Source of the DNA: Chiloscyllium plagiosum
Taxonomy: Eukaryota
Assembly (NCBI RefSeq): GCF_004010195.1
Contig: NC_057753.1
Span: 4,624,887 to 4,688,886 of the forward strand
Reading direction: 5' to 3'
Length of the DNA stretch: 64,000 bases
Part shown: positions 17,920 to 62,966 of the stretch, one piece after another
Layout of the letters: each line of letters opens with the position of its first letter
Numbering within the stretch: position 1 is the first letter of the stretch
Position numbers and translations under genes: made by a program
The notes under the pieces: model-generated
The model's database searches: none
Told to the model about the DNA's origin: nothing
What the model saw: only the letters and a program-made list of their open reading frames with translations

Positions 17920-18520
17920 CAATAGACATGCATGTATGCGTATACAGTTACATGGACTTGTCTATATATACACACCCACACATACATATGCATGTATATT
18001 TATAAGATACATGCATATTTAAGTGTATATATAATTACATCTATATAAGCATACACATTTGTTTATATATAGACACATTTATATAAAGTATACACATTTA
18101 TTTAAATATTCACATACATTTTACATCCACGTGTCTTCCTGTATAGTGTATATACAAACATACATGTAATGTGTACATTTGCATACACATGTTGACATAT
18201 GCACACCTGTCTGTACATATTTTTGTGTGAAGAAGGGCTTATGCCCGAAACGTCGATTCTCCTGTTCCCTGGATGCTGCCTGACCTGCTGCGCTTTTCCA
18301 GCAACACATTTCCAGCTCTGATCTCCAGCATCTGCAGACCTCACTTTCTCCTCATATTTTTGTATGTGCCCATTAAAACACATTGTGTGCATGAATATAA
18401 ACACAACACATTTATATTCATTTATACATGCTGATACATATGTGTGTGTGTAAATATTTATTCACATTTATACATTTTGACACAGGTAAGTTACATTTGT
18501 ATAAATGCTTGTAAATTAGT
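17920..18520. repeat. AT-rich low-complexity (TACA/ATGT) tract
   Basis: Degenerate TATACA/CATGT repeats. Confidence 0.6.
18228..18352 (+). mobile_element. Penelope-derived family A 3'-end insertion starting at the hammerhead core
   Basis: TGAAGAAGGGCTTATGCCCGAAACGTC...ctcactttctcct, flanked by TSD catatttttgt (18216-18226 / 18353-18363). Confidence 0.8.
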
Positions 18521-18527
18521 ATGCATG

Positions 18528-18745
18528 CCTGAGAAAAAGAACCGGAAATGACATCACCACAGGAAATGACATCACCCAAAGAAACCCAAACAGATGAATA
18601 GAAAGGACAAACCATTAGTAGTGCTTCGCCCTGAGGCCCACTGAAGAAGTAGGGTGACGAAACGTCTGAAAACAAACCTCCCAGCTCAGCAAGCAAACTT
18701 ACATCCAGAACCTCAACCTGAGCTACAAATCTTCTCAAACCTTGC
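18528..18745 (+). mobile_element. Penelope-derived family B 3' end (hammerhead stem II partly deleted)
   Basis: Matches 33840-34022 and 44744-44828. Ends cctcaacctgagctacaaatcttctcaaa. Confidence 0.7.
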
Positions 18746-19039
18746 TAATAAATGCATGTTTATACATATGTACACATGTATACCTAAGCGTTTATTTATA
18801 AACAGACACCCAGATCCCAACTTAAACAATATATTGGATGCATCAATTGAGCAGAGAGAAGTTCTACCATATCCCATAGCAGAGAGCAGGCTCCAAGTTG
18901 GCTGGGGGGGTGGGGGGAATGAATATTCCAGTCTCTCTAACCAGTGCTAAGCAGTTTAGGACTGGCATGTTCCAATAAGGAGGAAGGTCAAAGATGGCAA
19001 GGTGAGGGACCCTTGGATAATGGGAAAAGGTTGGGAATT

Positions 19040-21345
19040 TGGTCAAAACAGAAGCAATCTAAAATTGAATAGGACCTATGAGGAAAATGAAGAAAGCAGG
19101 GAATTAGGGGAGCAGGAAGGGGGCCGTGAAATGACCTTGGCAGTAAACTGAAAGAGAATCCCAAGGGTATTTTGTACCGACATTAAAAACGAGAGGAAAA
19201 CTAGGGAGAGGGTCGGACTCGCTCAAGGGTAACAGACGGCACTTGTGCTTGGAGGCAGAGAACGTGGGTGAAATCCTAAATGAGTACTTTGCATTGGTAT
19301 TCACCAAGCAGAATAACATGGAGGCTTGTGAGATTACTGTGGAGTATACTAACGTGCTACGGCATTTTGAGATTAACAAATAAATGGTGTGGAGTATAAA
19401 GGTGGATATATCCCCAGGACCTGATTCAATCTACCCCAGGTTATTGGTTGAGGCAAGAGAGGAGATTACTGGGGTGTTAACCGAGATCTTTGTATCCTCA
19501 TTAGCCACTAGAGAGGTCTGGGAGGACTGTTAGGAGCTAATATCATTCCTCTATTTAAGAAGGGAAATAGGGATAATCCAGGAAACCGTAGGCCAGGGAG
19601 TCTCACATCTGTGGGTGGGAAGCTATTGGAGAGAATTTCAGGGTTAGGAATTATGCGCATTTGGAAAAGCATGGCCCAATAAGGGACAGTCAGCATGGCT
19701 TTGTGCAGGGTAGGTCATGTCTTACTAACTTGAACTTTTTTGAGGTGGTGACAAAACTGATTAGATTAGATTTGATTGGATTCCCTACAGTGCGGAAACA
19801 GGCCCTTCAGCCCAACAAGTCCACACTAATCCTTCGAAGAGCAATCCACCCAGCCCCATTTCCCTCTGACTAATGTACCTAACTCTACGGGCAATTTAGC
19901 GTGGCCAATTCACCCTGACCCGCACATCTTTGGACTGTGGAAGGAAACCGGAGCACCCCACACAGACACAGAGAGAATGTGCAAACTCCACACAGACAGT
20001 TGCCCGAGGCTGGCATCGAACCCGGGTCCCTGGTGCTGTGAGGCAGCAGTGCTAACCACTGAGCCAGCGTGCCGCCCACAGAATCCCTACAGCATGGAAA
20101 CAGGTCCTTTAGCTCAACAAGTCCACACCGACCCTCCAAAGGGTAACCCACACACACAAACACACACACATATTACTCTACATTTTGATGAAGGGCAGAG
20201 TAGTAGATGTTGTCTACATGGACTGTAGTAAGGCTTTCGACATGGTCCCTCATGCTAGGCTCATGCAGAAGATTAAGATGCATGGGATCCACAGTGACTT
20301 GGCTATTTGGATTCAGAATTGCTCATTGAAGACAGAGGGTAGTGATGGGAGGGGTGTTTTCTGACTGGGGGAAGTCTGTGAATAGGAAAGATCTGCAGGG
20401 ATCTGTACTGGAACCTCTGTGATATACATATAAATGACTTGGATGAAAACGTAAATGGGTGAATGAATAAGTTTGCAGACAACACAAAGATCGATGGAGT
20501 CGTGGATGGTGGAGAAGGTTGTCAAATGGCACAGTGAGATGTAGATCAGTTGCAGATATGGGCAGAGAAATGGCAGATGGAGTTTAATCTGGGTAAGTGT
20601 GAGGTGCTGCACTTTGGGAGATCGAGTGTTCAGGGCAAGTATCGAGTTAATGGCAAGGTCTTAAACAGCACTGATGTAAGGGAGACATTGGGATTCAAGC
20701 CCATAGCTGAAATTGGCTACACAGGTCGATATGGGGGTAAAGAAGATGTATGGCATTATTGCCTTTATTAATCGGGGCATTGAGTACAAGAGTCAGGATG
20801 CCATGTTGCAGCTCTATAAGACTTTGGTTAGGCCGCACTTAGCATTTTGTGTTCAATTCTGGTCACCACATTACAGGAAGGATGGGGATTCTTTGGAGAG
20901 GGTGCAGACGAAGTTTACCCAGGTGCTGCTGGATAAGAGGGTATGAGCTATAAGGAGAGGCTGGAAAAACCCGGATTGTTTTCTCTGGAGTGACAGAGGC
21001 TGAGGGGAAGCTTGATAGACATCTATAAAATGATGAGATGCACAGATAGGGTTGACAGTCAGAATCCTTTTCGTATTGCTGACATGTCTAATACTATGGG
21101 GCATATTTATATTGAAGGTAGAGAGGGAAAGTTGAAAGGAGATGTGAGGGGCAAGTCTTTTTACACAGAGAGTGGTAGGAGTGTGGAATGCGCTGCCAGG
21201 GTGGTGATGGAGGGATATATGATAGGGGCGTTTAATGGACTTTTAGATAACCACATGAATATCTAAGGAATGGAGGGATGTGGATTAAAGGCAGACAGAA
21301 GGGATTAGTTATGTTTGGCATCACGTTCGACACAATATTATTCTC
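19040..21345 (+). mobile_element. Degraded CR1 LINE ORF2 (RT and C-terminus), interrupted by a SINE at ~19760-20180
   Basis: Fragments QHGFVQGRSCLTNL, KFADNTK, KWQMEFNLGKCEVLHFG and [19 protein letters not shown], with frameshifts. Confidence 0.85.
19760..20078 (-). mobile_element. HE1/V-SINE-like SINE inside CR1
   Basis: Full-length reverse complement with (TTAGA)n tail. Confidence 0.8.
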
Positions 21346-22930
21346 TTCATCTGCCACTCCTCAGCACATTGGCCCAGCTGATCCCATTGTACTCTTTAGG
21401 TAACATTCACTGTCCTCCATACTGTCAATGTTTGTCATCAGCAAACTGATGAAACCTGCTTCCTATATTCTCATTCACAACAACACTGATCTCTGTGGCA
21501 CACAACTGGTCACAGACGTCCAGTCCATAAAACAACCTCAAACCCCACCTTCAGGCTCCGACTATCAAGCTAATCTTGGTATCCAGTTGGCTAGCTCTCT
21601 CAGCTCTCCCATGTGATCTAACCTTACTAACTAATCTACTGTGCAGAATCTCAACACGATTCCCCACGCACAAAGCCATGTTGACTATCCCTAATCAGTC
21701 CTTGATTCTCCAAATGGGTTTAAATCAGGTCAGTCGGAATCCCCTCTAACAACTTACCTGCCGCTGAGGTAAGGCTCACCAGTCTATAGTACCCTGGCTT
21801 GTCCTTACAGCATTTCTTAAATAATGGCACAGTATTAGACAACCTCTGAACTTCCAGCACCTCACCCATGGCTGTAGGTGATACAAATATCGCTGCTCGG
21901 TGCCCCGCAATTTCTTCCTTAGCTTCCCACAAAGTCCCGGGCCCACACTTGATCGGGTCCCAGAGATCTACCTACCTTTGTGCATTTTAAGAGCTCCAGG
22001 AGCAGCTCTTCCCTAATGTGGACTGTTTTTAAGAGATCACTATTGATTTCCCCAAGTTCCCTCGCTTCCATGTCTTTCTCCACAGTAAATGCTGAGGCAC
22101 AATATTCAGTTAGGATCTCACCCATCTCTTGTAGTTCCACACAAGGACAGTGTTGTTTATCCTCAGGGGCTGTTGCTTTTATGCCCTTTATGCATTTGTA
22201 GAATGTCTTTGCGTTCTCCTTAACCTTAGCTGTCATGGCTATCTCATGTCCCCTTTAGGCTCTCCTGATTTCCCTTTTAAGAATGCTCCCTCTATACTCC
22301 TCAAGGGAATCACTTGATTCCAGCTGTCTATACCTCCTTTTTCTTGACCATGGCCTCGATATCTCTAGTCATCTAGTATTCCCTATTTTTACCAGCCTCA
22401 CCTTCACTTTTCTAGGAACATAGTGTCTCTGAACTCTAGTGATGACACTTCTGAAGCCCCCCCTCCCCCACCATCCACTTGCCAGTCAAGCCTTGACCTG
22501 TGAACTGAAGAAGGGCTTATGCCCGAAACGTCGATTCTCCGGCTCCTTGGATGCTGCCTGACCTGCTGCGCTTTTCCAGCAACACATTTTCAGCTCTGAT
22601 CTCCAGCATCTGCAGCCCTCACTTTCTCCTTGACCTGTGAACTGCCTACCCAAATCAACTTTTGGGCATTCCTGTCTGTTCCCATCAAAATTGACCTTGC
22701 TCCCATTTGGAACTTTTCAGTTAGGCCTCTCTTTTTCCATAACTGTTTTAAAACTAGTAGAAATAGGATCACTGGTCCCAATGTGCTCCTCCATTAACAC
22801 CTCAGTCGCTTTCCCTGCCTTATTTCCCAAGGGAAAGTATGGTTTTGCTCCCTCTGTGGTCGCTACATCTAAATCTCGAAAAAAAAACCTTTTCCTGAAC
22901 ACATCTAACCAATTCCTCCCCACCTGGGCC
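21346..22930 (-). mobile_element. Degraded CR1 LINE ORF2 fragment
   Basis: Minus-strand ORFs NTVPLFKK..KDKPGYYRLVSLTS..GKLLE and ELQEMGEILTEY.ASAFT.E. Confidence 0.8.
22505..22630 (+). mobile_element. Penelope-derived family A insertion with hammerhead core
   Basis: CTGAAGA-A-GGGC-TTAT-GCCC-GAAAC-GTC at 22505-22532, with a 17-bp TSD ccttgacctgtgaactg (22491-22507 / 22628-22644). Confidence 0.85.
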
Positions 22931-23650: not shown

Positions 23651-23656
23651 GGGATG

Positions 23657-23920: not shown

Positions 23921-24057
23921 ACGGGGCGAGAGAGTGGGTGCTGGAAAAGCACAGCCGGTCAGGCAGCATCTGACAAGCAGGAGAATTGACGTTTTGACCA
24001 TAAACCCTTCACTCGGCTATGTCCAGCATCAGCAGTCCTCGCCTCCTCCGAGTTGAT
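23921..24057. mobile_element. Penelope-derived family A remnant
   Basis: Inverted family A arm plus tail, with TSD tccaaaccctc (23910-23920 / 24058-24068). Confidence 0.65.
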
Positions 24058-27486: not shown

Positions 27487-28960
27487 ACTAAATGGCACAG
27501 AAACAGACCCTTCGGTCCAACCCGTCCATGCCGACCAGTATCCCAACCCAATCTAGTCCCACCTGCCAGTACCCGGCCCATATCCCTCCAAACCCTTCCT
27601 GTTCATATACCCATCCAAATGCCTCTTAAATGTTGCAATTGTACCAGCCTCCACCACTTCCTCTGGCAGCTCATTCCATACACACACCACCCTCTGTATG
27701 AAAAGGCTGCCCCTTTAATATCTTTCCCCTCTCATCTCTCCCCTTAAACCTGTACTCTCTGGTTTTGGTCTCCCCTATCCTTAGCTTTTCACCCTATCCA
27801 TGCCCCTCATGATTTTACAAACCTGGATAGGGTCACCCCTCAGCCTCCGACGCTCCAGGGAAAACAGCCCCAGCCTGTTCAGCCTCTCCCTGTAGCTCAA
27901 ATCCTCCAACCCTGGCCACATCTTGTAAATCTTTTCTGAACCCTTCCAAGTTTCACAACATCTTTCCGATAGGAAGGAGACCAGAATTGCAGGCAATATT
28001 CCAACAGCGGCCTAACCAATGTCCTGTACAGCCGCAACATGACCTCCCAACTCCTGTACTCAATACTCTGACCAATAATGGAAAGCATACCAAACGCTGC
28101 CTTCACTATCCTATCTACCTGTGACTCCACTTTCAAGGAGCTATGAACCTGCACTCCAAGGTCTCTTTGTTCAGCAACACTCCCCAGGACCCAATGATTT
28201 AAGTCTATAACTCCTGCCCTGACTTATTGACCAAAATGCAACACCTCACAGTGATCTAAATGAAACTCCATCTGCCACTGCTTGGTCGATCAAGATCCCT
28301 AGTAGAAAGCGAGAGCTGCAGACGCTGGAGTTCAGAGTCGAGAGTGGGGTCCTGGAAAGCACTGCAAGTCGGGCAGCATCCCAGGAGCAGGAGAATTCCT
28401 GATGAAGAGCTTATCCCCGAAACGTCGATTCTCCTGCTCCTTGGATGCTGCCTGACTGGCTGTGCTTTCCCAGCACCACACTCTCGACCCATTAAGGTCC
28501 CATTGTAATCTGAGCTAGCCCTCTTCGCTGTCCACCACACCACCCAATTTTGGTGTCATCTGCAAACTTACTAACTGTACCTCCTATGTTCACATCCAAA
28601 TCATTTATATAAATGACAAAAAGCAGTGGACCCAGCGCTCTGTGGTCACAGGCCTCCAGTCTGAAAAGCAACCCTCCACCACCACCCTCTGTTTTCTACC
28701 TTTGAGCCAGTTCTGTAACCGAATGGCTAGTTCTCCCTGTATTCCATGAGCTCTAACCCTGCCAACCCATGGGGAACCTTGTCGAACGCCTCACTGAAGT
28801 CCATATAGATCACATCTACCGCTCTGCCCTCATCAATCCTCTTGGTTACTTCTTCAAAAAAACTCAATCGAGTTTGTGAGACATGATTTCCCACGCACAA
28901 AGCCATGCTGTCAGTCCTTGCCTTTCTGAATACACGTAAATCCTATCCCTCAGCATCCCG
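27487..28960 (-). mobile_element. CR1 LINE 3' part, interrupted by a family A hairpin at ~28305-28487
   Basis: LYRTLVRPLLEYCLQFWSP, KFADDTKIGG, and the 3' tail. Confidence 0.85.
28305..28487. mobile_element. Penelope-derived family A hairpin with hammerhead-like core (stem II damaged)
   Basis: caggagaattc-CTGATGA(28399)-agagcttatcccc-GAAAC-GTC-gattctcctg, between inverted arms. Confidence 0.75.
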
Positions 28961-29707: not shown

Positions 29708-29825
29708 ATTTACACCAGTCCCACTTTCCAGCACTAGCCCCATTATCCTCAACTTCACGACATTTTAAGTGTGCGTACAAATACTTATTTAAGGTTGTGA
29801 GGTTACCCACCTCAATTTCCTCTAT

Positions 29826-29865
29826 TCCTGATGAAAGGCTTTTGCCTGAAACGTCGATTTTCCTG
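29826..29865 (+). ncRNA. Putative minimal type-I hammerhead ribozyme (family A variant)
   Basis: CTGATGA(29828)-A-AGGC-TTTT-GCCT-GAAAC-GTC. Stem II has an A-U pair where other family A copies have G-C. The family tail continues to ~29912. Confidence 0.6.
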
Positions 29866-30172
29866 CTCCTCAGATGCTGCCTGACCTGCTGTGCTTTTCC
29901 AGCACCACTCTAATCCAATACCCACCTCAATCCCCTTTCAAGCAGTGCTTTCCAGACCTCCAACACTCTCTCCATGAAAAACAAATCCCTGAAAACTTTC
30001 GCTTTCACATTATGCCCAGTTGTTATTACTGACCCTGCAACCAATGGGAACAGTTGCTTAATATTCACCCTGAACATTGATGTCATCATCTTATACACAC
30101 TTATCAGGGCCCCCCTTTAACCATCAGGTTCCAGATAAAACATCCCACATTTCTTCACAGCTAGCCTGCCTC

Positions 30173-31690
30173 ACAGAGATGTACAACACAGAAACAGACC
30201 CTTCGGTCCAACCCGTCCATGCCTACCCAGATATCCCAACCCAATCTAGTCCCACCTGCCAGCACCCGGCCCATGCCCCATAAACTTCCTGCATTTTTTT
30301 TAACCAAACCTTCATCATCCAGCATTCCCTATACCTACCAGCCTTTCCTATCACCCTAACAGGAATGTACTTTCTCTGGATTCTCGATATCTCATTTCTG
30401 AAGGCTTCCCATTTTCCAGCCGTCCCTTTACCTGCGAACATCTGCCCCCCAATCAGCCTTCGAAGGTTCTTGCCTAATACCGTCAAAATTGGCCTTTCTC
30501 CAATATAGAACTTCAACTTTTAGATCTGGTCTATCCTTTTCCATCACTATTTTAAAACTAATAGAATTATGGTCACTGGCCCCAAAGAGCTCTCCCACTG
30601 ACACCTCAGTCACCTGCCCTGCCTTATTTCCCAAGAGTAGGTCAGGTTTTACACCTTCTCCAGTAGGTACATCCACATACTGTATCAGAAAATTGTCTTG
30701 TACACACTTAACAAATTCCTCTCCACCTAAACCCTTAACACTATGGCAGTCCCAGTCTGTGTTTGGAAAGTTAAAATCCCCTAACATAACCACACACTAT
30801 CATTTTCACAGGTATCTGAAATCTCCTTACAAATTTGTTTCTCAATTTCCCTCTGACTATTGTGGGGTTTATAATACAATCCCAACAAGGTGATCATCCC
30901 TTTCTTATTTCCCAGTTCCAACCAAATAACTTCCCTGGATGTATTTCCAGGAATATCCTCCCTCAGCACAGCTGTAATGCTATCCCTTATCAAAAATGCC
31001 ACTCCCCCTCCTCTCTTGCCTCCCTTTCTATCCTTCCTGTAGCATTTGTATCCTGGAACATTAAGCTGCCAGTCCTGCCCATCCCTGAGCCATGTTTCTG
31101 TAATTGCTATGATAACCCAGTCCCATGCTCCTAACCAAGCCCTGGGTTCATCTGTCTTCCCTGTTAGGCCCCTTGCAGTGAAATAACTGCAGTTTAATTT
31201 ATCAGTCTCATCTTGTTCTCTGCTTAGTCATTGCCTGCCCTGTCTATTTAACTCGCTTCTGTTCTCAGCTGTACCTGTCTCAGATCGATCTCTTTCCTCA
31301 CGATTTCCCTGGGTCCCCACCCCCACCTTACTAGTTTAAATCCTCCTGAGCAGTTCTAGCAAATTTTCCTGCCAGTATATTAGTCCCCTTCCAATTCAGG
31401 TGCAATCCGTCCTTCTTGTACAGGTCACTTCTACCCCAGAAGAGATTCCAATGATCCAAAAATGTGAATCCTTCTCCCATACACCAGCTCCTCAGCCATG
31501 CATTCATCTGCTCCATCCTCCTATTCCTACCCTCACTAGCTCGTAGCACTGGGAGTAATCCAGATATTACTACCCTCGAGACCTTTTTTGAATTCCTGCC
31601 TAACTCTCTATAATCTCCCTTCAGAATCTCAACGCTTTCCCTTCCCGTGTCATTGGTACCAACGTGGACAATGACCTCCGACTGGGCCCC
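30173..31690 (-). mobile_element. CR1 LINE: ORF1 SGNH-esterase end, ORF2 endonuclease, and a directly fused 3' tail
   Basis: VIVHVGTND...VVISGLLPV...DGLHLNWKG (CR1 ORF1 esterase) and MLGDFNFPNTDW, SDHNSISF (APE endonuclease). The tail lies at 30173-30280. Confidence 0.85.
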
Positions 31691-33286: not shown

Positions 33287-33611
33287 CTAAACCCTAGTTC
33301 AAGTGTTTAGTTCTGGATGTAGGTTTGCTCGCTGAGCTGCAAGGTTCAGTTCCAGACATTTCAATACCCAACTGGGTTAATATCTTAAATATCCCACTCC
33401 ACCGAGGATATGCAGGTCATTGGACTCATCCACCGCCAAACCACAACAACGCGATGTCATTTCATATGGTGACATCATTTCCTGTTCTTTTTCTCAGGGG
33501 GTGGTAGTTGGGGTCTAACTTGATGTGTTTGTTGATAGAGTTCTGGTTGGAATGCCATTGCTTCTAGGAATTCTCATGCGTGTCTCTGTTTGGCTTGTCC
33601 TAAATAACACC

Positions 33612-33832
33612 GAGGAGGAGAAAGTGAGGACTGCAGATGCTGGAGATCAGAGCTGAAAATGTGTTGCTGGAAAAGCGCAGCAGGTCAGGCCGCATCCAGG
33701 GAACAGGAGAATCGACGTTTTGGGCATAAGCTGGGGATTCCTGAAGAAGGGCTTATGCCCGAAACGTCGATTCTCCTGTTCCCTGGATGCGGCCTGACCT
33801 GCTGCGCTTTTCCAGCAACACATTTTCAGCTC
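33612..33832. mobile_element. Family A hairpin element (82-bp arms, 1 mismatch) with 12-bp TSD
   Basis: Arms at 33650-33731 and 33751-33832. TSD ctaaataacacc at 33600-33611 / 33832-33843. Confidence 0.9.
33733..33776 (+). ncRNA. Putative minimal type-I hammerhead ribozyme (family A)
   Basis: ggggattc-CTGAAGA-A-GGGC-TTAT-GCCC-GAAAC-GTC-gattctcc. Confidence 0.7.
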
Positions 33833-34130
33833 TAAATAACACCAAACCAAAGAAACCCAAACATATAAATAGAAAGCAGGAATCATGTACACTGCTCCAC
33901 CTGAGGCCCACTGAAGGTGATACCTAGTAGGGTAATGAAACATCTGGAAATGAACCTCCCAGCTCAACGAGCAAACCTACATCCAGAAGCTCAACCTGAG
34001 CTACAAATCTTCTCAAAACTCGTCAAGTGTTTAGTATTTTGGATAAAATAGTGTTTTAAAAAAAAACTGGCATAGCAAGCGAGATGAGCTTAGTTCTGGA
34101 AATCAAAATGTAGAATCAGTTTGGGTTAGG

Positions 34131-34975
34131 GTTATGACACAGGAACCAGCAATAAAGAAACAATTCAACCCGTGCTGTAAATTCAAGAGGCAAAGGACTA
34201 TCCCAAAAGGCACTATTTAAAGTAAAAATTAACAACTTTTTATATATTTTTTAAGTCGAACGGAGAATAATTAACAACTCTGTTGTTGTGGTTCTGTTCG
34301 CCGAGCTGGGAATTTGTGTTGCAGACGTTTCGTCCCCTGTCTAAGTGACATTGTCAGTGCTTGGGAGCCTCCTGTGAAGCGCTTCTGTGATCTTTCCTCC
34401 GGCATTTATAGTGGTAAACAATGAGCACCCGAGCTACAAATCTCACAAAAATTAACAACTCTTTTCTCTAAACACTAACTTTTACCTTCCCGTCTGGTCT
34501 GATGAAAAAAAAATTATGATTTACAAAAAAAAAATCAAGTTTCAAAACCAGTCAGCTTGCTGAGTGTGCTCTATAGATTTTCCTCTGTCTTCTTAGGGAC
34601 TTCTGTTCCACAGGTTATTGATAGATCAGGGTACCTGTCAGAGTAGTGGGCAGCCTGTATTTATTGTGGCTTAGCAGTTCTCTTTGCCATTCTGGCTAGC
34701 TGGTCAAACTGTCTGATACTCGGACCCCAAAACATCAGATCGTTTCATATTGTCAAAATACTAAATTCAAACATGATTTGAGTTTGGTATCTTGGGGCAT
34801 AATTTAAACCGATTGGCCGAATTTGCATTTGTTTCTGTCTCCTAGCAACCCAGCCACTGCTAGCAATTCGACCAACTGTTACATTTTAAATTTTCCAGTA
34901 ATTTGTGTGCTTCTCTAAGTCCTTGCTAGCTTTTCAACTCTCTTAAAGATGCAGTACCCCAAATGCCTTCATAAC
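34131..34975. mobile_element. Putative solo LTR inserted in a CR1 endonuclease remnant
   Basis: Inverted termini GTTATGA / TCATAAC, with flanks ttagg / tttgg as a near-TSD. It contains a family C insertion. Confidence 0.4.
34282..34449 (-). mobile_element. Penelope-derived family C insertion with degenerate hammerhead core (CTGACAA)
   Basis: Matches 50146-50276. TSD aattaacaactct at 34269-34281 / 34450-34462. Confidence 0.8.
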
Positions 34976-37000: not shown

Positions 37001-37445
37001 CAGTCAGCTCTGCTGTAACGCCTGTTCCTTCAACGCAAATAGGCTTCAATGCGATTGAAGAATTTAGACCGTTATTTGTAAAACGTGAACTTTCCTCACT
37101 TCTATCAGCTATAACGCCATGCTGGCCCCGTTCATTTCAATAGGGCGACCATTGCACAATTTTCTTACACGCAAGATTGGGCGAGAACTTAACTGTCGCG
37201 GTATATCAGTGATGATTTGGAGATGCCAGTGTTGGACTGGGGTGGGCAAAGTTAAAAATCACACAACATCAGGTTATAGTCCGAAAGGTTTAATTGGAAG
37301 CACTAGCTTTCGGAGCATTGCTGCTTCACCAGCTGGTTGTCTGCTGAAGGAGCAGCGCTCTGAAAGCTAGTGTGCTTCCAATTAAACCTGTTGGACTATA
37401 ACCTGGTGTTGTGTGACTTTTAATGCAGTATATCAGAACTGACTG
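37001..37445. mobile_element. Tc1/mariner-superfamily (Tigger-like) MITE with TA TSD, containing a family D hairpin
   Basis: TA-CAGTCAGCTCTGCTGTA ... TATATCAGAACTGACTG-TA. Confidence 0.7.
37211..37423. mobile_element. Penelope-derived family D hairpin element (degenerate hammerheads on both strands)
   Basis: Inverted arms matching 42825-42925, with gtatatcag duplicated on both sides. Confidence 0.75.
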
Positions 37446-37499: not shown

Positions 37500-40400
37500 C
37501 TATTTAAAATCTTTATTAATGACTTAGAGGCAAGGATAGAATGCACTGTAGTCAAATTTGCAGATGACACTGAATCAGGTGGGAACATAAGTTGAAAGGG
37601 AGAAATAGAAAATTTCCAAGTGGATATAGGTAGATTAGATTACTTACAGTGTGGAAACAGGCCCTTCGGCCCAACAAGTCCACACCTACCTGGCGAAGCG
37701 CGACCCACCCAGACCCATTTACCCCGAGGCGGGAATTGAACCCGGGTCTCTGGCGCTGTGAGGCAGCAGTGCTAACCACTGTGAGTGAGTGGGCCAACAT
37801 TTGGCAGATGGGGTTAAATTTGGATGAATGGGAGGCTATCCCTTTTGGTCAGAAGAATTAAAACCCAACTTCGGGGCAGCATGGTGTTTAGCACTGCTGC
37901 CTCACAGTGCCAAGGACCGAGTTCGATTCCAGCTTTGGGTGACCATCTGTCACGTGGAGTTTGCACATTTTCTGCGTGGATTTCCTCCGGGTGCTGCAGT
38001 TTCAACCCGCAGTCCAAAAATATACAGGTTCGGTGGATTGGCCAGGCTAAATTGCCTTGTTGTGTACAGGCGAGGTGGGTTAGCTGCAGTAAGTACAGGA
38101 TTACAGGGATGGTCTGCCTCTGGGTGGGATGCTGTTTGGAGAGTCGATTGGGCCGGATGGCCTCTTTCCACTCTTGTAGGGATTTCATGATGATCTAAAT
38201 GGAGAGAACTTCAAAGTCCTTCAGTGTAGAAAATTCTGGGTGTCTTTGTCCACGAATTGCAGAACTCTAGTGTGCAGGTACAGCAGGATAGCCGTCCGCC
38301 CCCACCCCCTCTCCGGCACGTCGATTTTCCTGCTCCTCGGATGCTGACTGACCTGCTGCACTTTTTCAGCACCACACTTTTCAACTCTGGTCTCCAGCAT
38401 CTGCAGTCCTCACTTTCTCCCAGCAGGATATAAGACAGGTGAATGGAATTTTGACCTTTATTGCTAAAAGAATGGGAGTATAAAAGTAGGAAAGTGTTGT
38501 TGCAATTGTACGAGGCATTTGTGAGGCTGCATGTGGAGCAGTGCATACAGTTTTTTTTTCCCTTGACTTGAGGAAGGATATAATCGCATTGGATGCAATT
38601 CAGGGAAGGTTCACTACATTATCTTCAGAGATAAGGCTTGTCTTATGATCAGGTTGTGCACTGTGAGCCCATACTCAAATTCAGAAGACTGAGAGGAAGT
38701 CTAATTGTGGAATATCAGGTAGTAAAAGGGGTCGACAAAGTAGACGGAGTAAAGACATTTCCCCACCCTTTGTTGGGACATAAGAGGTGGCAGAGTTAAA
38801 ATAAATGAGGAGGCATTATTTCTATCAATGGCTTGTGAATCTGTGGAATTCGTTATACCAGTGTCTGGACATGGAATAAATTTAAGGAGGAGATTGACAG
38901 ATCTTTAAATAGTTATGATTTGGATGGGTTATGGGGAGTGGTCAGGAAAGTGGAGTTGAGGCCAAGATGAGATCAGTCATCGTGGTATTAAATGGGAGAG
39001 CGGTGTTGAGGGGGTGAATACCCTCCTCCTGTTCCTGGTTCCAGTGTTCTGCTACTCAGATAAGGTACATCACAGTGATAAGTAACTGAAGCAAAGGACG
39101 TAGTAATCCGTGGCTAACAACGGGGAATTGAAACTAGCTGCAGATTGAAAAAACAAGGTATCATTGTACAAACATGAGTGGCAGGGCAAAGGAGTGACAG
39201 ATGGCTATTCAGCTAACGGGAAAATGAGAGCAGGCAGAAGTGAGGCATCCTCCTGTGGCATGGAGTGCTGGGATATCACCGTTTATTTCACTGACTTGGA
39301 ATGAAGAGTCCATGTACATAGATCCCTGAAAGTTGCCACCCAGGTGGATAGTGCTGTTAAGAAGGCATACCGTGTGCTAGGTTTCACTCGTAGAGGGATT
39401 GAGTTCCGGAGCTGCAATATCGTGCTGCAACTGTACAAAATGCTAGTGCGCCCACACTTGGAATACTGTGTACAGTTCTGGTCCCCATATTTCAGGAAGG
39501 ATGTGGAAGCATTGGAAAAGATGCCGAGGAGATTTACCAGGATGTTGTGTGGTCTGGAGGGAAGGTCATATGAGGAAAGGCTGAGAGACTTGAACCTGTT
39601 CTCATTGGCAAGAAGAGGGCTAAGAGGGGATTTGATAGAGACATACGAGATTATCAGAGGATTAGAGAGGATGGACAGTGAAGGTCTTTTTCCAAGGATG
39701 ATGTCAGCTTGTATGAGAGGGGATAACTACAAATTGAGGGGTGATAGATTTAAGACAGATGTCAGAGGCAGGTTCTTTACGCAGAGAGTGGTAAGGGCGT
39801 GGAATGCCCTACCTGCCAATGTAGTCAATTCAGCCACATTAGGGAGATTTAAATAATCCTTAGATAAGCACATGGATGATGATGGGATAGTGTAGGGGGA
39901 CGAGCTGAGAATAGTTCACAGGTCGGCGCAACATCGAGGGCCAAAGGGCCTGTTTCTGCGCTGTATTCTAAAATATGGCTACTGCGTTTGCTGCTGCCAC
40001 AAAAGATGGAAGTTGTGACGAGAGCATAAGGAATCTGTGCAATGGGATATCAACGGGTTGAGCAGGAGAAAAAACATGGAAATGGTGGATAAAATGTGAA
40101 CCCTCCTACTTTGGCAGCAAGAACTGAAAAAAAAAGCATGTGACTGGTGAGAGATTGCAGAATGTACAGAGGAATCTGGGGTGTCCTGTCACATGAATCC
40201 CAACACGTTTGCAGGCAGGTACAGCAAGTAATTGGGAGGGCAGCAAGACTGGGTTTTTTTTTTGCAAGGCAATGGAATGTAAAACTAGGGACTTAAAGCA
40301 CAGTACGCTGGAGAAACTCAACAGGTCTGTGGAGAGAGAAACACAGTTAACGTTGAGTCCTGTGCGATGCTCGTTCTGCAGCGTCCACAGTAGGAGGTTT

Positions 40401-42589: not shown

Positions 42590-42804
42590 ATTGTCTAGCT
42601 ATCACCATTGTTAACAGCTAAGCCGAGAATGCAACTTTTTTTAAAAAGGGTTTTGTGATTTACACATGAAAGAAGTGAAACTATCACGGTATTCTAACAG
42701 ATGGAAGGCTTAACAGACAATCAATTTTTCATTGTATAATTTCAGTTACATCACACTGCAAATTTTTGCTACAAATTCTGTGTTAGGATCGAGCCCTCCA
42801 CTAT

Positions 42805-42839
42805 CACCTGATGAAGGAGCGTCGCTCCGAAAGCTAGTG
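42805..42839 (+). ncRNA. Putative minimal type-I hammerhead ribozyme (family D, CUA cleavage triplet)
   Basis: CAC-CTGATGA-A-GGAGC-GTC-GCTCC-GAAA-G-CTA-GTG, in a family D 3' end spanning ~42590-42925. Confidence 0.7.
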
Positions 42840-43055
42840 CTTCCAATTAAACCTGTTGGACTATAACCTGGCACTGTGTGATTTTTAACTTTGTACACCC
42901 CAGTCCAACAGCGGCATCTCCAAATCCTGAGTCCTAGAGTTATGCAACACAGAAACAAACCATTCAGTCCAAATTGTTCATGCCGACCAGATATCCTAAA
43001 TTAATCTAGTCCCATTGGCCAGCAATTGGCCCATGTCCCTCTAAACCTTTCTATT

Positions 43056-43825: not shown

Positions 43826-44025
43826 ATCAGAGTGGTGCTGGAAAAGCACAGCAGGTCAGGCAGCATCCGAAGAGCAGGAAAATCAACGTTTTGGGCAAAA
43901 GCCCTTCATCAGGAATGAAGGCTCCTGCCCGAAACGTCGATTTTCCTGCTCCTCGGATGCTGCCTGACCTGCTGTGCTTTTCCAGCACCACTCTGATCTT
44001 CAGCATCTGCAGTCCTCACTTTCGC
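43826..44025. mobile_element. Family A hairpin element with degenerate hammerheads on both strands
   Basis: Inverted arms; the minus strand reads CTGATGA-A-GGGC-TTTT-GCCC-AAAACGTT. Confidence 0.8.
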
Positions 44026-44636
44026 CTACACCGCTGTGAGCCAGATACAGGAGCCAGTGATACTGAAGGAATGCTGATGTAGTTCCAGTCATGATGCTGC
44101 ATGACTTGGTGGGGAACTAACAGAGGGAGGTATTCCCATGTATCTGCTGGTTATTTCCTTCACAACAGCATTAGAACTGGGAATAGGAGCAGGGCAGTTT
44201 AGCCACTCAAGCCTGTTTCAACATTTGATATGAAAATAGCTGATTTATGGTTTCCCAGGATCATTGTTTCGGAAGGTGCCTGGGTAGGTTGTTGCACTGC
44301 ACCTTGTCGTTGGTACATGTTTGGAAACAAATTGCTCCTGATACGTTTCCCCACCTGTTTGTATGCAGAACGTGGTTTAACATTTACTGTTGACTGTTGA
44401 TTACCACTGGCTTAACAGTGGTCTGCTACACCCTCTGCTTGTGAACTCTTCCATTGCAAGAACTGCAGTAACGCCACTCTAACAGTAGAGGTAGGGTTTA
44501 ATTCACACTATCTTAGACCTAGCTGTTGTGGGAAGGGTCTCTACACAGGCAAACGTACAGAGAGATTTAAAGACGATTTGTTGCTCAGGTTGGGGTTCTG
44601 GATGTAGGTTTGCTCGCTGAGCGGGAAGGTTCATTT

Positions 44637-44676
44637 CCAGACGTTTCGTCACCCTACTAGGTAACATCTTCAGTGG
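44637..44676 (-). ncRNA. Putative minimal hammerhead ribozyme (family B)
   Basis: Minus strand reads CCA-CTGAAGA-T-GTTACC-TAGTAG-GGTGAC-GAAAC-GTC-TGG. Confidence 0.7.
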
Positions 44677-44749
44677 GCCTCCAGGTGGAGCACTGTTGAT
44701 AATTCCTACTTAAAACATATAAATAGAAAACAGGAATTCGCCCGGAGGC

Positions 44750-44789
44750 CCACTGAAGAGGTTACCTAGTAGGGTGATGAAACGTCTGG
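44750..44789 (+). ncRNA. Putative minimal hammerhead ribozyme (family B)
   Basis: CCA-CTGAAGA-G-GTTACC-TAGTAG-GGTGAT-GAAAC-GTC-TGG. Confidence 0.62.
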
Positions 44790-45404
44790 AAATGAACCTT
44801 CCAGCTCAACGAGCAAACCTACATCCAGTAAAGAGAGACACCTGAATTAAAAAAAAAGGTAGAGATCATCAGATTATCAACACTTCGGTACAAAACAACC
44901 AAGATCTACCCCTTTATCAATGTCTTTGCTATTAACAGCGAGTTTAAAAAGTCCAGAATTGGAGTCAGAAATCTTCAGTTCCTTTCTGGGGGGTTGGCTA
45001 GTCAAGGGTTCAGGAGCTGCAAACAGTTTCTTCTCTTTAAAAAAAAAATTCCTACGTCAGGCACCTGAGGGAATATCCCGGAAATTTAGTCTAATTCAAT
45101 GCTTTCACAAAAGAAAGCCAATCCTTGAAGACAGCACACATACAGAATTCTGCCTAATATTGTGCAGGCCAGAGATTAGACCTGGGGGGAAGGTTGAGAT
45201 AATCAGTGGATGTATTAGGAAAGATCATTCATCCCTGAACTGACTGCCTATTTCAATATGGTGTCATTAAAAAGCAGTCGGTTTCAGCACTGGAAGCATA
45301 TTGCGATCAAGCCTCCTTGGCAAGAAAACCAGAGACAAAGGGGATTGAGAGAAAGGCTTGCGCAGCAGCTAAAACAACTTCTGATGGAAAGAAAAACAAA
45401 GAAA

Positions 45405-47965: not shown

Positions 47966-48060
47966 GTTCAAAATTCAGGTTAAAACAAACTGGGCGACTG
48001 TCAGATTCTGATTCAACATTCGGTTTCGTTGCCCAACTGCAAACACTATTCTTGTGGTAT

Positions 48061-50075: not shown

Positions 50076-50118
50076 AATGCCTTGCAACATTGAATGATTA
50101 TTAAGTAATGCAAAGTCT

Positions 50119-50490
50119 GAGAGAAGATTTGTAGCTCGGGTGCTCGTTGTTGTGGTTCTGCTCGCCGAGCTGGGAATTTGTGTTGCAGACTTTTTGTCCC
50201 CTGTCTAGGTGACATCCTCAGTGCTTGGGAGCCTCCTGTGAAGCGCTTCTGTGATCTTTTCTCCGGCATTTGTAGTCCAAACACATCGATCTGGACCCAA
50301 TATACCGGCCACTGCAACGGACAGCTGAAGCTGACAACCGGAAGCGGCAGAGACAAATCACTACAAATGCCGGAGGAAAGGTCACAGAAGCGCTTCACAG
50401 GAGGCTCCCAAGCACTGAGGATGTCACCTAGACAGGGGACGAAACGTCTGCAACACAAATTCCCAGCTCGGCGAACAGAACCACAACAAC
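50119..50490. mobile_element. Penelope-derived family C hairpin (131-bp arms)
   Basis: Arms at 50146-50276 and 50360-50490. The loop encodes KHIDLDPIYRPLQ, homologous to the GIY-YIG C-terminal KHIELDPNYHPLR at ~61300. Confidence 0.85.
50412..50451 (+). ncRNA. Putative minimal hammerhead ribozyme (family C)
   Basis: GCA-CTGAGGA-T-GTCACCT-AGAC-AGGGGAC-GAAAC-GTC-TGC. Confidence 0.7.
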
Positions 50491-50975: not shown

Positions 50976-51221
50976 CTCATAAACAACAGGGCTGAAATTT
51001 AAAGTGATTGGCTAGTGAACTAATCTGATGCAAGATGACACTGTACCACACAATGAGTGATTTGTGACTGGAATACACTGCCTGGAGGTGCAGGGAAGGC
51101 AGGTTCAATAATGCATTGGAGGGTATTCAAAGATACAGGGGAAAGTCAGGGAGATGGTACTGTGCCATAACGCTCATTGGCTGGGAAGCCTCCTTGGGTA
51201 TTCTAAGAGAGAGAGCGAGCG

Positions 51222-51260
51222 AGCTAAAGTTTCAAGTCCAGATGACTCTTCATCAGAGCT
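51222..51260 (-). ncRNA. Hammerhead-like motif at Penelope 3' end (triplet UUU, probably mutated from GUU)
   Basis: Minus strand reads AGCT-CTGATGA-A-GAGTC-ATCTG-GACTT-GAAAC-TTT-AGCT. Confidence 0.55.
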
Positions 51261-53095
51261 GAAGTGTGGAGGGGGCAATATTTACAGGACAGTTTAGGGG
51301 TGCGGGTAGGTAGTGAGTGTTGGGGAGAAAAGATGTTGATAGTTCAGATTAAGAGATTGGAATGTGAGAATGGCAGAACAATGGTGTGTCTCCTGTTAGA
51401 CATGAAAGGGACAGACAGTCCCCACTGGGATTGGGGGGGGGGGGGGGAGGTGTTGGTAAGACACNNNNNNNNNNNNNNNNNNNNNNNNNNNNNNNNNNNN
51501 NNNNNNNNNNNNNNNNNNNNNNNNNNNNNNNNNNNNNNNNNNNNNNNNNNNNNNNNNNNNNNNNNNNNNNNNNNNNNNNNNNNNNNNNNNNNNNNNNNNN
51601 NNNNNNNNNNNNNNNNNNNNNNNNNNNNNNNNNNNNNNNNNNNNNNNNNNNNNNNNNNNNNNNNNNNNNNNNNNNNNNNNNNNNNNNNNNNNNNNNNNNN
51701 NNNNGGGAAGAAATGGGAATGGTTTACAATTTGAAGGTGTTGGGGGGGGGGGGGGGTAGAGGAGGAGGAGTGAGGTAAAGATGTGTTTGGTGGTGGCGTT
51801 CTGCTGGAGTTGTCTGAAGCAGCAGAGAATGATCCTTTGAATGGGGAGGCTGGTGGACTGAAAATTGAGGCCAAGGGGAACCCGATCAGGCTGTTGTGAC
51901 TAATGCGAAGGGGCGAGGGATGCAAGCACGGCTGATAGGTCAGATGCGGTTGAGGGCCCTGTCAACCACAGCGGGTGGGAAACTACAGGTACAGAAGGAG
52001 CAGCACTGTTTTGGAAGGTGGCATCATCCAAACAGATACGACGTAGGTGAATGAATTGGGATGGAATCCCTGCAGGACGTAGGGTGTGAAGAGCTGGAAT
52101 GAAAGAAGCTATGGGAGTCAGGGGCTCTGTGGTGGATGGCAGCAGACAGTTTATTCCCCAAAATGGAGACGGAAAGGTCAAGGAAAGGAAGGGAAGTGTC
52201 GGGAATGGACTATGTGGAAGTTATGGCGGGGTGGAAATTGGAGGCAAAATGAATGAGGTTTTCAAAATCCTCACGGGACGGCATGAAACAGTCGTCGATG
52301 TAGCGAGGAAAGAGTTGTTGGACGGAGCCCGTCTGGGAATGGAACAAGGATTGTTCCAAATACCCCATAACGAACTGGGACCCATGTGGGTTAGCGTGGA
52401 TGGACATTTTGGTCAGCATGGACCAGTTTGAGCCAAAGGGCCTCTCTCCATGCTGTAGACTTGATGACTCTATGCCATACCCATAAAGAGGCAGGCATAA
52501 CTGGGACCCATGTGGGTGCCCACAGCCGCTCCTTTGACTTGGCAGAAGTGAGATGAACTAAAGGAGAAACCGTTCAGCGGGAGACAAGCTCAGCCAGGCG
52601 GAGGAGAGTCCCCGGCGGACGGGAAACGTTCAGGCCTCTGGTCAAGGAAGAAGTCGAGAGCTCTTAGAGCATCCTGATGGGGGGTGGGGTTTTGGAGGGA
52701 TTGCACATCCAAGGTGAACAGGAGGCAGTTAGGGCCAGGGAACTGGAAATTGCCCATATGGTGGAGGGCATCATAACTGGGCAGAGTCTGGACAAGTGGA
52801 GAGAGGATGGAGTCAAGGTAGGAGGAAATGAACTCAGAGGGGCAGGCTGATACGATGGGTCTCCCAGGGCAGTCTGGATTGTGGATTTTGGGAAGGAAGT
52901 AGAAGTGGGCTGTCTGGGGTCGGGAGACTGTGAGGTCAGAGGCAGTGGGGGGGGAGGAATCGCCAGAGGTAATGAGGTTGGTGACAGCCCTGGCACCAGT
53001 GGATTGATTTTCAGAGGTGGGGTCATGGTCAGGGGGAGTTAGGAAGAAGTGTCTGAGAGCTGGCAAGGTAACAGTCCGCATGCCAGACTACAACA
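51222..53095 (-). mobile_element. Degraded Penelope-like element (RT to 3' end), spanning a 240-N gap (51465-51704)
   Basis: FYFLPKIHNPDCPGRPIVSAC, LLFTLDVQSL and PRYIDDCF. The 3' end carries a hammerhead-like motif at 51222-51260. Confidence 0.85.
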
Positions 53096-56798: not shown

Positions 56799-57298
56799 NN
56801 NNNNNNNNNNNNNNNNNNNNNNNNNNNNNNNNNNNNNNNNNNNNNNNNNNNNNNNNNNNNNNNNNNNNNNNNNNNNNNNNNNNNNNNNNNNNNNNNNNNN
56901 NNNNNNNNNNNNNNNNNNNNNNNNNNNNNNNNNNNNNNNNNNNNNNNNNNNNNNNNNNNNNNNNNNNNNNNNNNNNNNNNNNNNNNNNNNNNNNNNNNNN
57001 NNNNNNNNNNNNNNNNNNNNNNNNNNNNNNNNNNNNNNNNNNNNNNNNNNNNNNNNNNNNNNNNNNNNNNNNNNNNNNNNNNNNNNNNNNNNNNNNNNNN
57101 NNNNNNNNNNNNNNNNNNNNNNNNNNNNNNNNNNNNNNNNNNNNNNNNNNNNNNNNNNNNNNNNNNNNNNNNNNNNNNNNNNNNNNNNNNNNNNNNNNNN
57201 NNNNNNNNNNNNNNNNNNNNNNNNNNNNNNNNNNNNNNNNNNNNNNNNNNNNNNNNNNNNNNNNNNNNNNNNNNNNNNNNNNNNNNNNNNNNNNNNNN
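56799..57298. other. Assembly gap (500 N)
   Basis: Run of N. Confidence 0.99.
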
Positions 57299-61075: not shown

Positions 61076-61077
61076 AT

Positions 61078-61440
61078 GAATGTAGGTTTGCTCACTGAGC
61101 TGCAAGGTTCATTTCCAGACATTTCTTTAACCTACTAGGTAACATCTTCAGTGGGCCTCAGGCAAAGCAATGCTAAGACTTCCTGCTTTCTATTTATATG
61201 TTTGGGTTTCTGTGGGTCAGTGATGTCATTTCCTGTGGTGATGTTATTTCCTGTGGTGAAGTCACTTCCTGTTCCTTTTCTCAGGGGATGGTAGTTGGGG
61301 TCTAACTCGATGTGTTTGTTGATAGAGTTCCGGTTGGAATGCCATGCTTCTAGGAATTCTTGTGCATGTCTCTGTTTGGCTTGTCCAAGGATGGATGTGT
61401 TGTCCCAGTCGAAATGATGTCCTTCCTCATCCGTATGTGA
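61078..61440 (-). mobile_element. Penelope-like element 3' end (family B) with GIY-YIG C-terminus and degenerate hammerhead
   Basis: Minus strand translates HTDEEGHHFDWDNTSILGQAKQRHAQEFLEAWHSNRNSINKHIELDPNYHPLR. Downstream, ccactgaagatgttacctagtagg follows at ~61130-61155. Confidence 0.8.
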
Positions 61441-61610
61441 TAAGACTTAGATATTGGGAAAGAAAGTCATGTTTCTAAATTTGCTGATGGCACGATATAG
61501 CTGGCATTTTAAGAAAGTATGTTCAGAAGTATGAAAGTACTAAATGAGAGAGAGAGAGATAGACAGACAGACACTGCTAAGGGTAAGAGAAAGCTGTGGT
61601 TATGGTGACT

Positions 61611-61629
61611 GCACCACTAGGTGGCAGCA
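61611..61629 (+). promoter_or_regulatory. CTCF-binding motif candidate
   Basis: GCACCACTAGGTGGCAGCA matches the CTCF core CCASYAGRKGGCRS. Confidence 0.6.
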
Positions 61630-61683
61630 ATGGTGCACAGGCACAAACATGGCATGGTCGCAAAAAGGTTGATGTTGTTGTGT

Positions 61684-61890
61684 TGCCATAGTCTTACCAG
61701 ACCATAGGGGTTGCTCTCTCATTAGAGAGAAGCAACTGGTGGTGATTTAACCTGAGGGCCACCAGACCTTAGGCGAGGGAAGAGGTTGAGAAGGAGACTC
61801 CTTCATGGTAACCTCGAACCAGCGATGGGAATTGAACTCACGCAGCTGACATCACACGGCTTTGTAAACCAACAGTCCAGCCAACTGAAG
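61684..61890 (-). mobile_element. Second tRNA-derived SINE family (3' part also at 57640-57760 +)
   Basis: Minus strand has A-box-like TCAGTTGG, B-box GAGTTCAATTCCC and tail ctatggtctggtaagactatggc. Confidence 0.6.
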
Positions 61891-62931
61891 CGAAAAAAAA
61901 GTCACACCCGAACAAAGATGGTGCTGTCCAGATCATTACAGCACAGAGTAGAGTCAGCTTCTCAGCATCCGCTCACTAATATACACAGACGTTTCACTTC
62001 TTCTTGCAGTAACCGTTAGAAAAATGTCAAGACAAAATCTCAAACATTGACAGTAGAGCTTAGAAATCGCAGTTCGAGCAGTTCCCCAGTTGCAAGTGGA
62101 TGTGCACACAAGTCAGAATACAGCGCAAGACAACATAAAGCAGCAGTTTGTAAGTACAAGAAACTTTTGAATTTTGGATCTTTAAAGATGCTCCTCTATA
62201 CGAGATCTCTCCTTTAAGCACAAGTGATTGTAAGTCAAACGTTCATAAATCGGGGCCCCCCTGTAAATCTGTTGGAAAAATTTGGAAAGCAGGAATATAA
62301 TGGGATGTATGTGACACTGCGTGCAAGATGCTCCCTTTTGATGGACAGTCACAGCAAACAGTCTAATGGGCTGATACCACAAATGTACGAACAGATCTTG
62401 ATGAAAAGGGCTGTGGTGCGGCAAGGCACATCAATGGCTGGTAGCTGTTTTGCTATTTGAAGTAATCACTCCATTAGATGCATGGACCCAACTGTAACAA
62501 AGGGATTTTAATACGATGCTATATACTTTGGACATAGAAATGATGACAATAACGCAAAGTGGCCGAGCAGAGGCTCATAGTCTAGTTCGGTGCCCACGCG
62601 CATGGCTTCAACTGGGACCTTGGGTTCATGTCATGTTACTGGTGACCCTACTGCACTACATACTCTCTCTCACACACGTACACTCCTACAGACTCATACA
62701 CTCACGTACACCCTCTCTCACTCACAAGCTCTCTCTCATATGCTCACACATACACTCACATGCGCACATACACCCTCTCACAGACTTATACCCCTTTAGA
62801 TTCACACACATACACATACACACTCTCTCTCACAGACACTCCCCAGGTCTTTTTCAATATATAATTTCAATTACATTACACTGTAAGCTATTTCTATAAA
62901 TTCTGTATCTTACAAACTTATACTCCACAAC

Positions 62932-62966
62932 CACCTGATGAAGGAGTGGCGCTCCGAAAGCTAGTG
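62932..62966 (+). ncRNA. Putative minimal hammerhead ribozyme (family D)
   Basis: CAC-CTGATGA-A-GGAGT-GGC-GCTCC-GAAA-G-CTA-GTG, followed by the same tail as at 42840 (to ~63018). Confidence 0.68.

Follow-up and report, generated by a model that had tools for sequence, protein, structure and literature searches.

The DNA analyzed here is a 64,000-nt stretch of the Chiloscyllium plagiosum genome (NC_057753.1:4,624,887-4,688,886; hereafter the window). It holds 31 fragments of five repeat families, which we call A, B, C, D and F, each family with a minimal hammerhead ribozyme motif. In order, the motif comprises a CUGANGA box, a single additional base, the helix II hairpin, GAAA and a 4-base palindrome that ends in U, followed by H. 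In 12 of the fragments all 11 catalytic core bases (C3 U4 G5 A6 N7 G8 A9, G12 A13 A14, A15.1-U16.1) are unchanged, and seven copies are intact by all criteria that we applied. These ribozymes are the known minimal hammerheads of Penelope-like elements (PLEs), here in a shark-type genome. Elsewhere in the same genome, junctions of U6 small nuclear RNA (snRNA) sequence with families A and C at the predicted cut sites suggest that such minimal hammerheads cut in vivo, in the living animal.

Two of the seven intact copies belong to family A. The first (29816..29908, plus strand) is a solo insertion of an older subfamily with a CUGAUGA box and the short 3' end, flanked by a 13-nt target duplication. 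The second (33737-33833) is the plus arm of a head-to-head pair (33615..33833) that entered the site as a single unit, flanked by a 12-nt target duplication, and the minus arm of which (33615-33731) ends inside loop II. Two family D copies on the plus strand keep an intact hammerhead, one of them with 223 nt of upstream sequence, an AGCU helix III and a CUA triplet (42590..42892; cut by the N run at 41845-42589), the other likewise with upstream sequence (62745..63016). In family B both arms of a head-to-head pair are intact (44593..44827; 44593-44711 on the minus strand, 44713-44827 on the plus strand), with a 7-bp helix II and a 3-bp helix I. The seventh is the plus arm (50279-50490) of a family C head-to-head pair (50111..50490), the core of which is intact and which shows the A.G mismatch that family C has within helix II; the minus arm of the pair (50111-50276) has the tail and one core change. 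An earlier note on this DNA had described the complete fold for family C, of which the core and helix III stand and the fully paired helix II does not.

That note cited 11 sites in all as carrying CUGANGA ... GAAA ... UH on a given strand. We read every one, and all 11 do. At some of them parts of the fold are missing or altered. The family A solo copies with tail at 18228..18357 and 22505..22630 (both plus strand) begin directly after their target duplications (11 nt and 14-17 nt, respectively) and are therefore without helix I. The former is truncated inside the CUGA box, so that C3 is missing; the latter starts at C3, lacks the 5' strand of helix I, and has an intact core and helix II with a predicted cut at 22532/22533. 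In the family A head-to-head pair at 28301..28480, the plus arm (28395-28480; motif cited at 28399) keeps its core, helix II is broken, and the inverted arm supplies a long helix I; the minus arm (28301-28396) starts one base past the predicted cut site. Similarly, the family F copy (51211..51414, minus strand; cut by the N run at 51465-51704) retains the core, its helix III being mutated to ACUU and its 10.1-11.1 pair being G.U. The string "ggggattc", previously taken as family A helix I, turned out to come from the point where a single copy meets an inverted arm. The helix I 5' strand proper to family A, (C)AUUC, gives only C-G, U-A, U.U and A-U.

To judge such motifs against background, we searched a 264-kb set made up of the window and 100 kb on either side. 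A strict descriptor, which asks for at least 3 bp in helix I, at least 4 bp in helix II, a palindromic helix III without a loop and any base but G at H17, matched 7 times, whereas neither the reversed sequence nor any of 20 second-order Markov shuffles gave a match. A relaxed descriptor, which tolerates one helix II mismatch and CpG decay of helix III and does not require helix I, matched 22 times, compared with 0 in both the reversed and the complemented sequence. Genome-wide, exact matches to the family motifs numbered 28,555 for the family A 36-mer, 3,738 for the family C 37-mer, 958 for the family D 37-mer and 376 for four variants of the family B 35-mer, while the family F 35-mer with up to 2 mismatches was found 122 times; the backwards-pattern control gave 0 for each of them. 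The Rfam hammerhead models lend the motifs no support: there was no match on the whole window, at the gathering score or at E up to 10, nor on 42700-44900, a region with one D and two B motifs, and this counts against them. The likely reason is that the models expect a helix III. Together with the shortness of the descriptor, the silence of Rfam could speak for chance matches of a loose descriptor inside abundant repeats. That explanation is already refuted by the controls, and the core and pairings are shared by all five families even though these are unrelated in the rest of their sequence; we give it practically no weight.

Copy anatomy was studied in an unbiased genome sample of 864 kb (seven blocks on seven contigs, 19,402 N), to which the copy counts below refer unless stated otherwise. 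It contains 283 copies (159 of A, 64 of D, 22 of C, 21 of F and 17 of B), and the five families make up 5.6% of its non-N bases, which bears out the proposal that the genome is densely seeded with several ribozyme families. Among the 144 copies that span the motif, 69 keep all 11 core bases and H17, and 35 keep the full core, helix II and the 15.2-16.2 pair. A rough extrapolation to 3.56 Gb gives on the order of 10^5 intact-core motifs; the axolotl, with a much larger genome, has 126,247 canonical type I motifs (PMC7229834).

The 11 core bases are invariant across the master sequences of A, B, C, D and F, in which H17 is C, C, C, A and U, respectively. Helix III is loopless and palindromic in all of them, ACGU in A, B, C and F and AGCU in D, with a C-G pair at 15.2-16.2 in the four former families and G-C in D. 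GUC, CUA and GUU thus far make up the cleavage triplets of this one genome, three in all. Each family has an extra nucleotide between A9 and G10.1 (A, U/G, U, A and A, in the same order), and the G10.1-C11.1 pair is present in A, B, C and D; sampled F copies have G.U, and G-C variants occur among the F genome matches. In helix I, positions 1 to 3 show CG/AU/UA, UA/CG/AU, and CG/GC plus one U.U. In helix II, positions 2 to 4 show GC/UA/AU, GC/UG/CG/AU, and CG/AU/GC/UA plus one A.G. A MAFFT alignment of eight family representatives put the B and C cores in the wrong place; for this reason no covariance model was built, and the pairs were tallied by position in a script over the five masters, as a table with no significance test. 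On this five-master table the covariation between families is real, since helices I and II keep pairing, with three to four pair types per position, around a fixed core. The earlier note was therefore right that stems I and II differ between families and still pair, and right about the stem III palindrome, ACGU in A, B and C and AGCU with a CUA triplet in D.

Its expectation of an excess conservation of the core is a different matter. In family D there is no such excess within the family (0.91 identity in the core, 0.92 in the flank), which weighs against the ribozyme being maintained in the copies, and in family A the comparison is confounded because subfamilies differ from the copy used as reference. 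N7 is A (CUGAAGA) in young family A copies, and CUGAUGA is found in the older, more diverged ones; an older subfamily also has another helix II, with one compensatory pair change (copy L026:5208). Relatives of family F in the genome show an ancestral ACGU helix III with a GUU triplet, and many of them are CpG-decayed to ACAU. More generally, the most decayed positions are CpGs, including those of helix III and of the A cut site (0.67-0.72 identity). Comparison within families gives no indication that copies are under selection once inserted, and most genomic copies are inert relics, truncated and CpG-decayed. Cofolding of two copies with ViennaRNA gave lowest-energy dimers with pairings other than those of the hammerhead dimer; the latter could not be scored because it is pseudoknot-like and its structure is not nested.

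Minimal hammerheads of metazoan PLEs have been described by four marks: helix III has no loop, A9 and G10.1 are separated by one additional base, G10.1 pairs with C11.1, and 15.2-16.2 is palindromic (Cervera and de la Pena, 2014; PMC4209133). All four are seen here. Further likenesses to the motifs of that paper are the type I topology, the short helix I (3-4 bp), the helix II of 4-7 bp, the presence of many consensus families per genome with compensatory changes, and the small number of copies inside full elements. The copy numbers, however, are far above the approximately 4,000 and 9,000 that it gives for coelacanth and Xenopus, respectively, and the coexistence of the GUC, CUA and GUU triplets in a single genome is unlike what it describes. 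Neither "shark" nor "Callorhinchus" occurs in its main text, and "shark" does not occur in PMC7229834. A 2026 preprint (10.64898/2026.07.22.740005) includes, in its text, one chondrichthyan species, with tandem retrozymes only. The supplements of the 2014 paper and of the preprint may list cartilaginous-fish motifs.

The sequence around the motif also points to PLEs. Family A has a GIY-YIG frame, about 330 nt of C-rich untranslated sequence, the hammerhead, 80-130 nt more, and then either of two 3' ends; GIY-YIG frames lie 330-450 nt upstream of the hammerhead in A, B and C. The family A frame scores 23.2 bits against Pfam GIY-YIG (cut-off 22.6), that of family B 19.9 bits against the same cut-off, and that of family C aligns to the GIY-YIG stretch of a homologous bamboo-shark protein (P0002) with E 2e-8. 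The upstream open reading frames (ORFs) of B and C are 64% identical, which at the sequence level makes them sister families. The closest named proteins are uncharacterized ones from Chiloscyllium punctatum (84% and 65% identity), one of them with weak matches to RVT_1 and GIY-YIG. Other results weigh against this assignment. A reverse transcriptase (RT) was not seen directly beside these hammerheads, RVT_1 appearing only as a weak match in P0002 (16.4 bits, cut-off 29.6) next to a weak GIY-YIG match; Pfam gave no match on the C, F and RT-flank frames; and no reading frame was confirmed in D and F, the D upstream sequence being of low complexity and that of F having no Pfam match. In the longest family A copy examined we take the RT core to be internally deleted; upstream of this copy (L143) lie an inverted A arm and an N run, and no direct 5' repeat. 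The optional tail and the inverted pairs, which are PLE marks, occur in all five families. Very probably, the five families are 5'-truncated 3' end pieces of PLEs, each with a minimal type I hammerhead for which cutting is predicted only when two copies pair via the loopless palindromic helix III. The Penelope-type origin proposed in the earlier note is borne out by the same marks.

The way in which copies begin and end is informative in this respect. Truncation at the 5' end is graded: 30 family A loci anchored on an upstream word reach 2 to 489 nt further upstream, and B, C, D and F (20 loci each) show the same gradation together with two classes of 3' end approximately 35-40 nt apart, which are also found in A. 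With family A positions counted from C3 (G1.1 being +28), 154 copies include the 3' part; their end lies at +120 or later (around +126) in 73 cases and at +81/82 in 22. At the 5' side, the start falls at -6 to -3 in 40 of these 154 and anywhere from -6 to +7 in 75, and 34 reach 8 nt or more upstream, the commonest 5' end lying 4-5 nt ahead of the CUGA box. An extra G at the 5' junction was considered as a cap mark and found no support, as only 5 of 17 copies starting at -4 were preceded by G when inspected by eye. Target duplications measure 9-17 nt, namely 11-17 nt on three solo A copies, 12 nt on one whole A pair and a 9-nt word shared by the flanks of a family D head-to-head pair (37248..37421; 37248-37340 on the minus strand, 37341-37421 on the plus strand, one core change per arm); the chance of a shared flank word of 10 nt or more is 0.02.

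A close parallel is PAc, a Poseidon-type PLE of Anolis carolinensis, in which an optional tail of 30-40 nt results from two internal start sites of reverse transcription and both target strands are cut and extended (PMC11167929). The families described here resemble PAc, as presented in that work, in the optional 30-40 nt tail, in the use of both target strands and in having the hammerhead near the start sites. They differ in that the PAc hammerhead overlaps the start of the ORF, whereas no ORF start could be traced through the motif here. By analogy with PAc, the two 3' ends may correspond to two internal start sites of reverse transcription, and the inverted pairs would arise because both strands of the target are nicked and extended by the enzyme of the element. 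Judging from the end positions, many of the mini-copies may be complete cDNAs of a short 5' part of the element RNA.

The short units, of 85-130 nt, recall another class of hammerhead-bearing repeats, the non-LTR retrozymes. These are short non-autonomous tandem repeats whose hammerhead-released circular RNAs are copied back to DNA, and the preprint cited above reports them in one chondrichthyan species and links them to PLE terminal repeats. As described in PMC7229834 and 10.64898/2026.07.22.740005, retrozymes share with the present families type I hammerheads working as dimers in vertebrates and a kinship to PLE terminal repeats. However, retrozymes consist of 170-400 nt units repeated in tandem, their hammerheads are canonical and they have circular RNAs. 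The copies described here stand alone or in inverted pairs, have the minimal motif and grade upstream into the coding region. Among the 283 copies there are 69 head-to-head pairs, to which about one copy in two belongs, against 4 tail-to-tail pairs and 9 neighbors of the same orientation. A 31-mer spanning a family A tandem junction has only 2 exact matches in the genome, and a circular or tandem template for family A was rejected on these matches and the few same-orientation neighbors. In addition, the ends of the copies lie off the cut site. Because the families are not tandem, we do not regard them as retrozymes, an identity that seems to us very unlikely.

Evidence bearing on cleavage of the PLE RNA comes from a genome search with U6 (RF00026), in which 48 matches, a part of all candidates, were scored and the 3' neighbor of each was read. 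Among them, U6 is joined to the predicted cleavage product in five insertion events, four with family A and one with family C. At three loci (L210, L227 and L244) the 3' end of U6 is followed directly by family A from G1.1 (+28) through to the end of the tail (+125). Locus L237 (a/b) is an inverted pair with the same U6-family A start at +28. Locus L239 is also an inverted pair, one arm of which is U6 joined to family C at U1.1, with a one-base uncertainty owing to a run of U. Two more U6 copies are followed by 6 and 10 other bases and then by family A coding-region sequence (-404 and -440). None of the 48 scored matches has a junction at -4, the commonest 5' end of family A, and 1 of 154 ordinary A copies starts at +28.

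Hammerhead cleavage leaves a 5'-hydroxyl on the 3' product, and the 3' end of U6 is a 2',3'-cyclic phosphate; RtcB joins such ends, and this has been presented as the origin of U6/L1 chimeras (Moldovan et al., 2019; PMC6789731). Because a 5'-hydroxyl product and the U6 cyclic phosphate are the ends that RtcB joins, we read the U6 loci as records of in vivo cleavage. According to what the junctions suggest, a fraction of the element RNA would be cut by its ribozyme in vivo, the 5'-hydroxyl product would probably be ligated to U6 RNA in an RtcB-type reaction, and the chimera would then be copied into DNA from the element's normal start site. The loci resemble the U6/LINE-1 chimeric pseudogenes of Moldovan et al. 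in that a retroelement RNA is attached through its 5' end to the 3' end of U6 and the chimera is inserted by the element machinery. Unlike in those chimeras, the partner is a PLE rather than L1, and the junction is fixed at a predicted ribozyme cut (four times in A, once in C), which would itself supply the 5'-hydroxyl for RtcB. No publication uniting U6 snRNA, Penelope and hammerhead was found in the literature searched. We consider the chances evenly balanced that the U6-Penelope chimeras are DNA fossils of a process in which the minimal hammerhead cuts germ-line PLE RNA, the 5'-hydroxyl product is ligated to the U6 cyclic phosphate, and the element RT copies the chimera.

Several observations weigh against this interpretation. 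Ordinary copies that begin at the cut site are few, 4 of 154 in family A at +28/+29 (1 and 3, respectively) and 3 of 53 in family D; taking A and D together, 7 copies start at the cut site or at a directly adjacent base, against approximately 2 expected from a rough neighbor-position estimate, and three of them are ambiguous junctions of A inverted pairs. Reads from poly(A) single-cell RNA lie on both strands of the family A copy at 22505, with 96% continuing into unlike sequence, and do not pile up with their ends at 22532/22533, a library type ill-suited to such ends; one of two raw RNA runs gave 0 reads on the window. Published minimal hammerheads cut poorly in vitro, according to PMC4209133, and PMC11167929 reports that the PAc ribozyme is dispensable for insertion in vitro and that no reads end at its cut site. 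The U6 junctions, for their part, could in principle reflect template switching to U6 from the 5' end of an RNA that some other nuclease had cut.

Such findings would also suit a motif that is no ribozyme in vivo and acts instead as a conserved RNA structure recognized by an element protein, as a binding or priming signal, in which case it is for binding that the hammerhead-like core is retained. The Anolis ribozyme mutants that still insert, the lack of cleaved reads there and of read ends at the cut site in the RNA data here, and the poor cutting in vitro all fit it, as does the position of the reverse-transcription start sites only 80-130 nt downstream of the motif. Nevertheless, all 11 core bases are the same across five families with differing helices, which a hairpin that served for binding alone would not require, the protein-binding region of the Anolis element was mapped in PMC11167929 to the first 172 nt of the ORF, and U6 is joined exactly at the predicted cut in five events. 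A pure binding role is thus improbable in our opinion. Whereas the Anolis RNA data, as reported, are without sign of cleavage, the U6 junctions in C. plagiosum point to some cleavage of the element RNA by its hammerhead.

Two further sets of junctions were observed in the course of this analysis. Two family A copies in the flanks of the window (L016:7564 and L025:355) start exactly at G1.1, each after the same 5-base filler, which suggests an internally deleted subfamily rather than independent events. U6 was also found next to a short interspersed element (SINE): of the 48 scored U6 matches, approximately 14 are U6-SINE chimeras, in which one and the same tRNA-like SINE begins with its 5' end within a few bases after the U6 3' end (L208, L215, L216, L220, L225, L228-L235, L238, L241 and L247).

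Whether the minimal hammerheads of PLEs cut in vivo, and for what purpose, has been an open question since 2014, and the one PLE studied biochemically does not need its own. If our interpretation is true, the U6-Penelope chimeras would represent the first in vivo evidence of cleavage by these ribozymes. The U6 junctions and the sharp 5' end 4-5 nt before CUGA would then place the ribozyme at the very front of the element RNA, from which cutting would strip the first 32 nt plus any cap. U6 junctions offer a DNA-level read-out of cleavage that can be counted genome-wide and across species, and it is this read-out, together with the sharp 5' end just ahead of the ribozyme, that appears most worth following. 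The C. plagiosum genome is in this regard an unusually large natural data set, with on the order of 10^5 intact-core motifs (extrapolated), at least five families and three triplets. There is also a lesson for annotation, as about 5% of the sampled sequence consists of these elements, Rfam misses their ribozymes, and the inverted pairs mimic microRNA hairpins.

The remaining PLE fragments in the window are more decayed or less complete. Family A contributes two head-to-head pairs with decayed hammerheads, one at 15852..15975 (15852-15929 on the minus strand, 15932-15975 on the plus strand) and one at 43832..44027 (43832-43917 minus, 43913-44027 plus; both hammerheads decayed), a decayed minus-strand copy with 2 core changes (23939..24010) and a plus-strand copy with tail that is truncated inside the hammerhead (38313..38420). 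Four are from family B: a plus-strand copy with an intact core in which the 5' half of helix II is deleted (18528..18712), a minus-strand copy with 222 nt of upstream element sequence and a decayed hammerhead (33314..33602), a plus-strand copy with 1 core change and CpG decay of helix III (33840..33985), and a minus-strand copy with 300 nt of upstream sequence, an intact core and CpG-decayed helices II and III (61077..61473). A minus-strand family C copy with 1 core change lies at 34282..34415.

Within the head-to-head pairs, 33682-33800, 43832-43991 and 44630-44796 form long perfect hairpins with weak matches to Rfam microRNA precursors (up to 64 bits, far below gathering), and head-to-head Penelope hairpins are a likely source of false microRNA calls. 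Several spurious microRNA-like Rfam matches also fall in a TG/TA-rich simple-repeat tract (17929-18216) just upstream of the family A copy at 18228. Five N runs, 2,485 bases in total, interrupt the window (10600-11099, 32479-32978, 41845-42589, 51465-51704 and 56799-57298), and two of them cut Penelope copies (family D at 42590 and family F at 51414). An RVT_1 fragment (25218-25736, minus strand, E 1e-14) and a GDSL-lipase-like frame (31331-31834, minus strand, E 1e-9) are probably LINE-type pieces unrelated to the Penelope families. Between Penelope fragments also lies an exon of a zinc-finger gene (46928-47974, minus strand), with a 348-aa frame and approximately 11 C2H2 fingers (Pfam zf-C2H2, E 1e-64).

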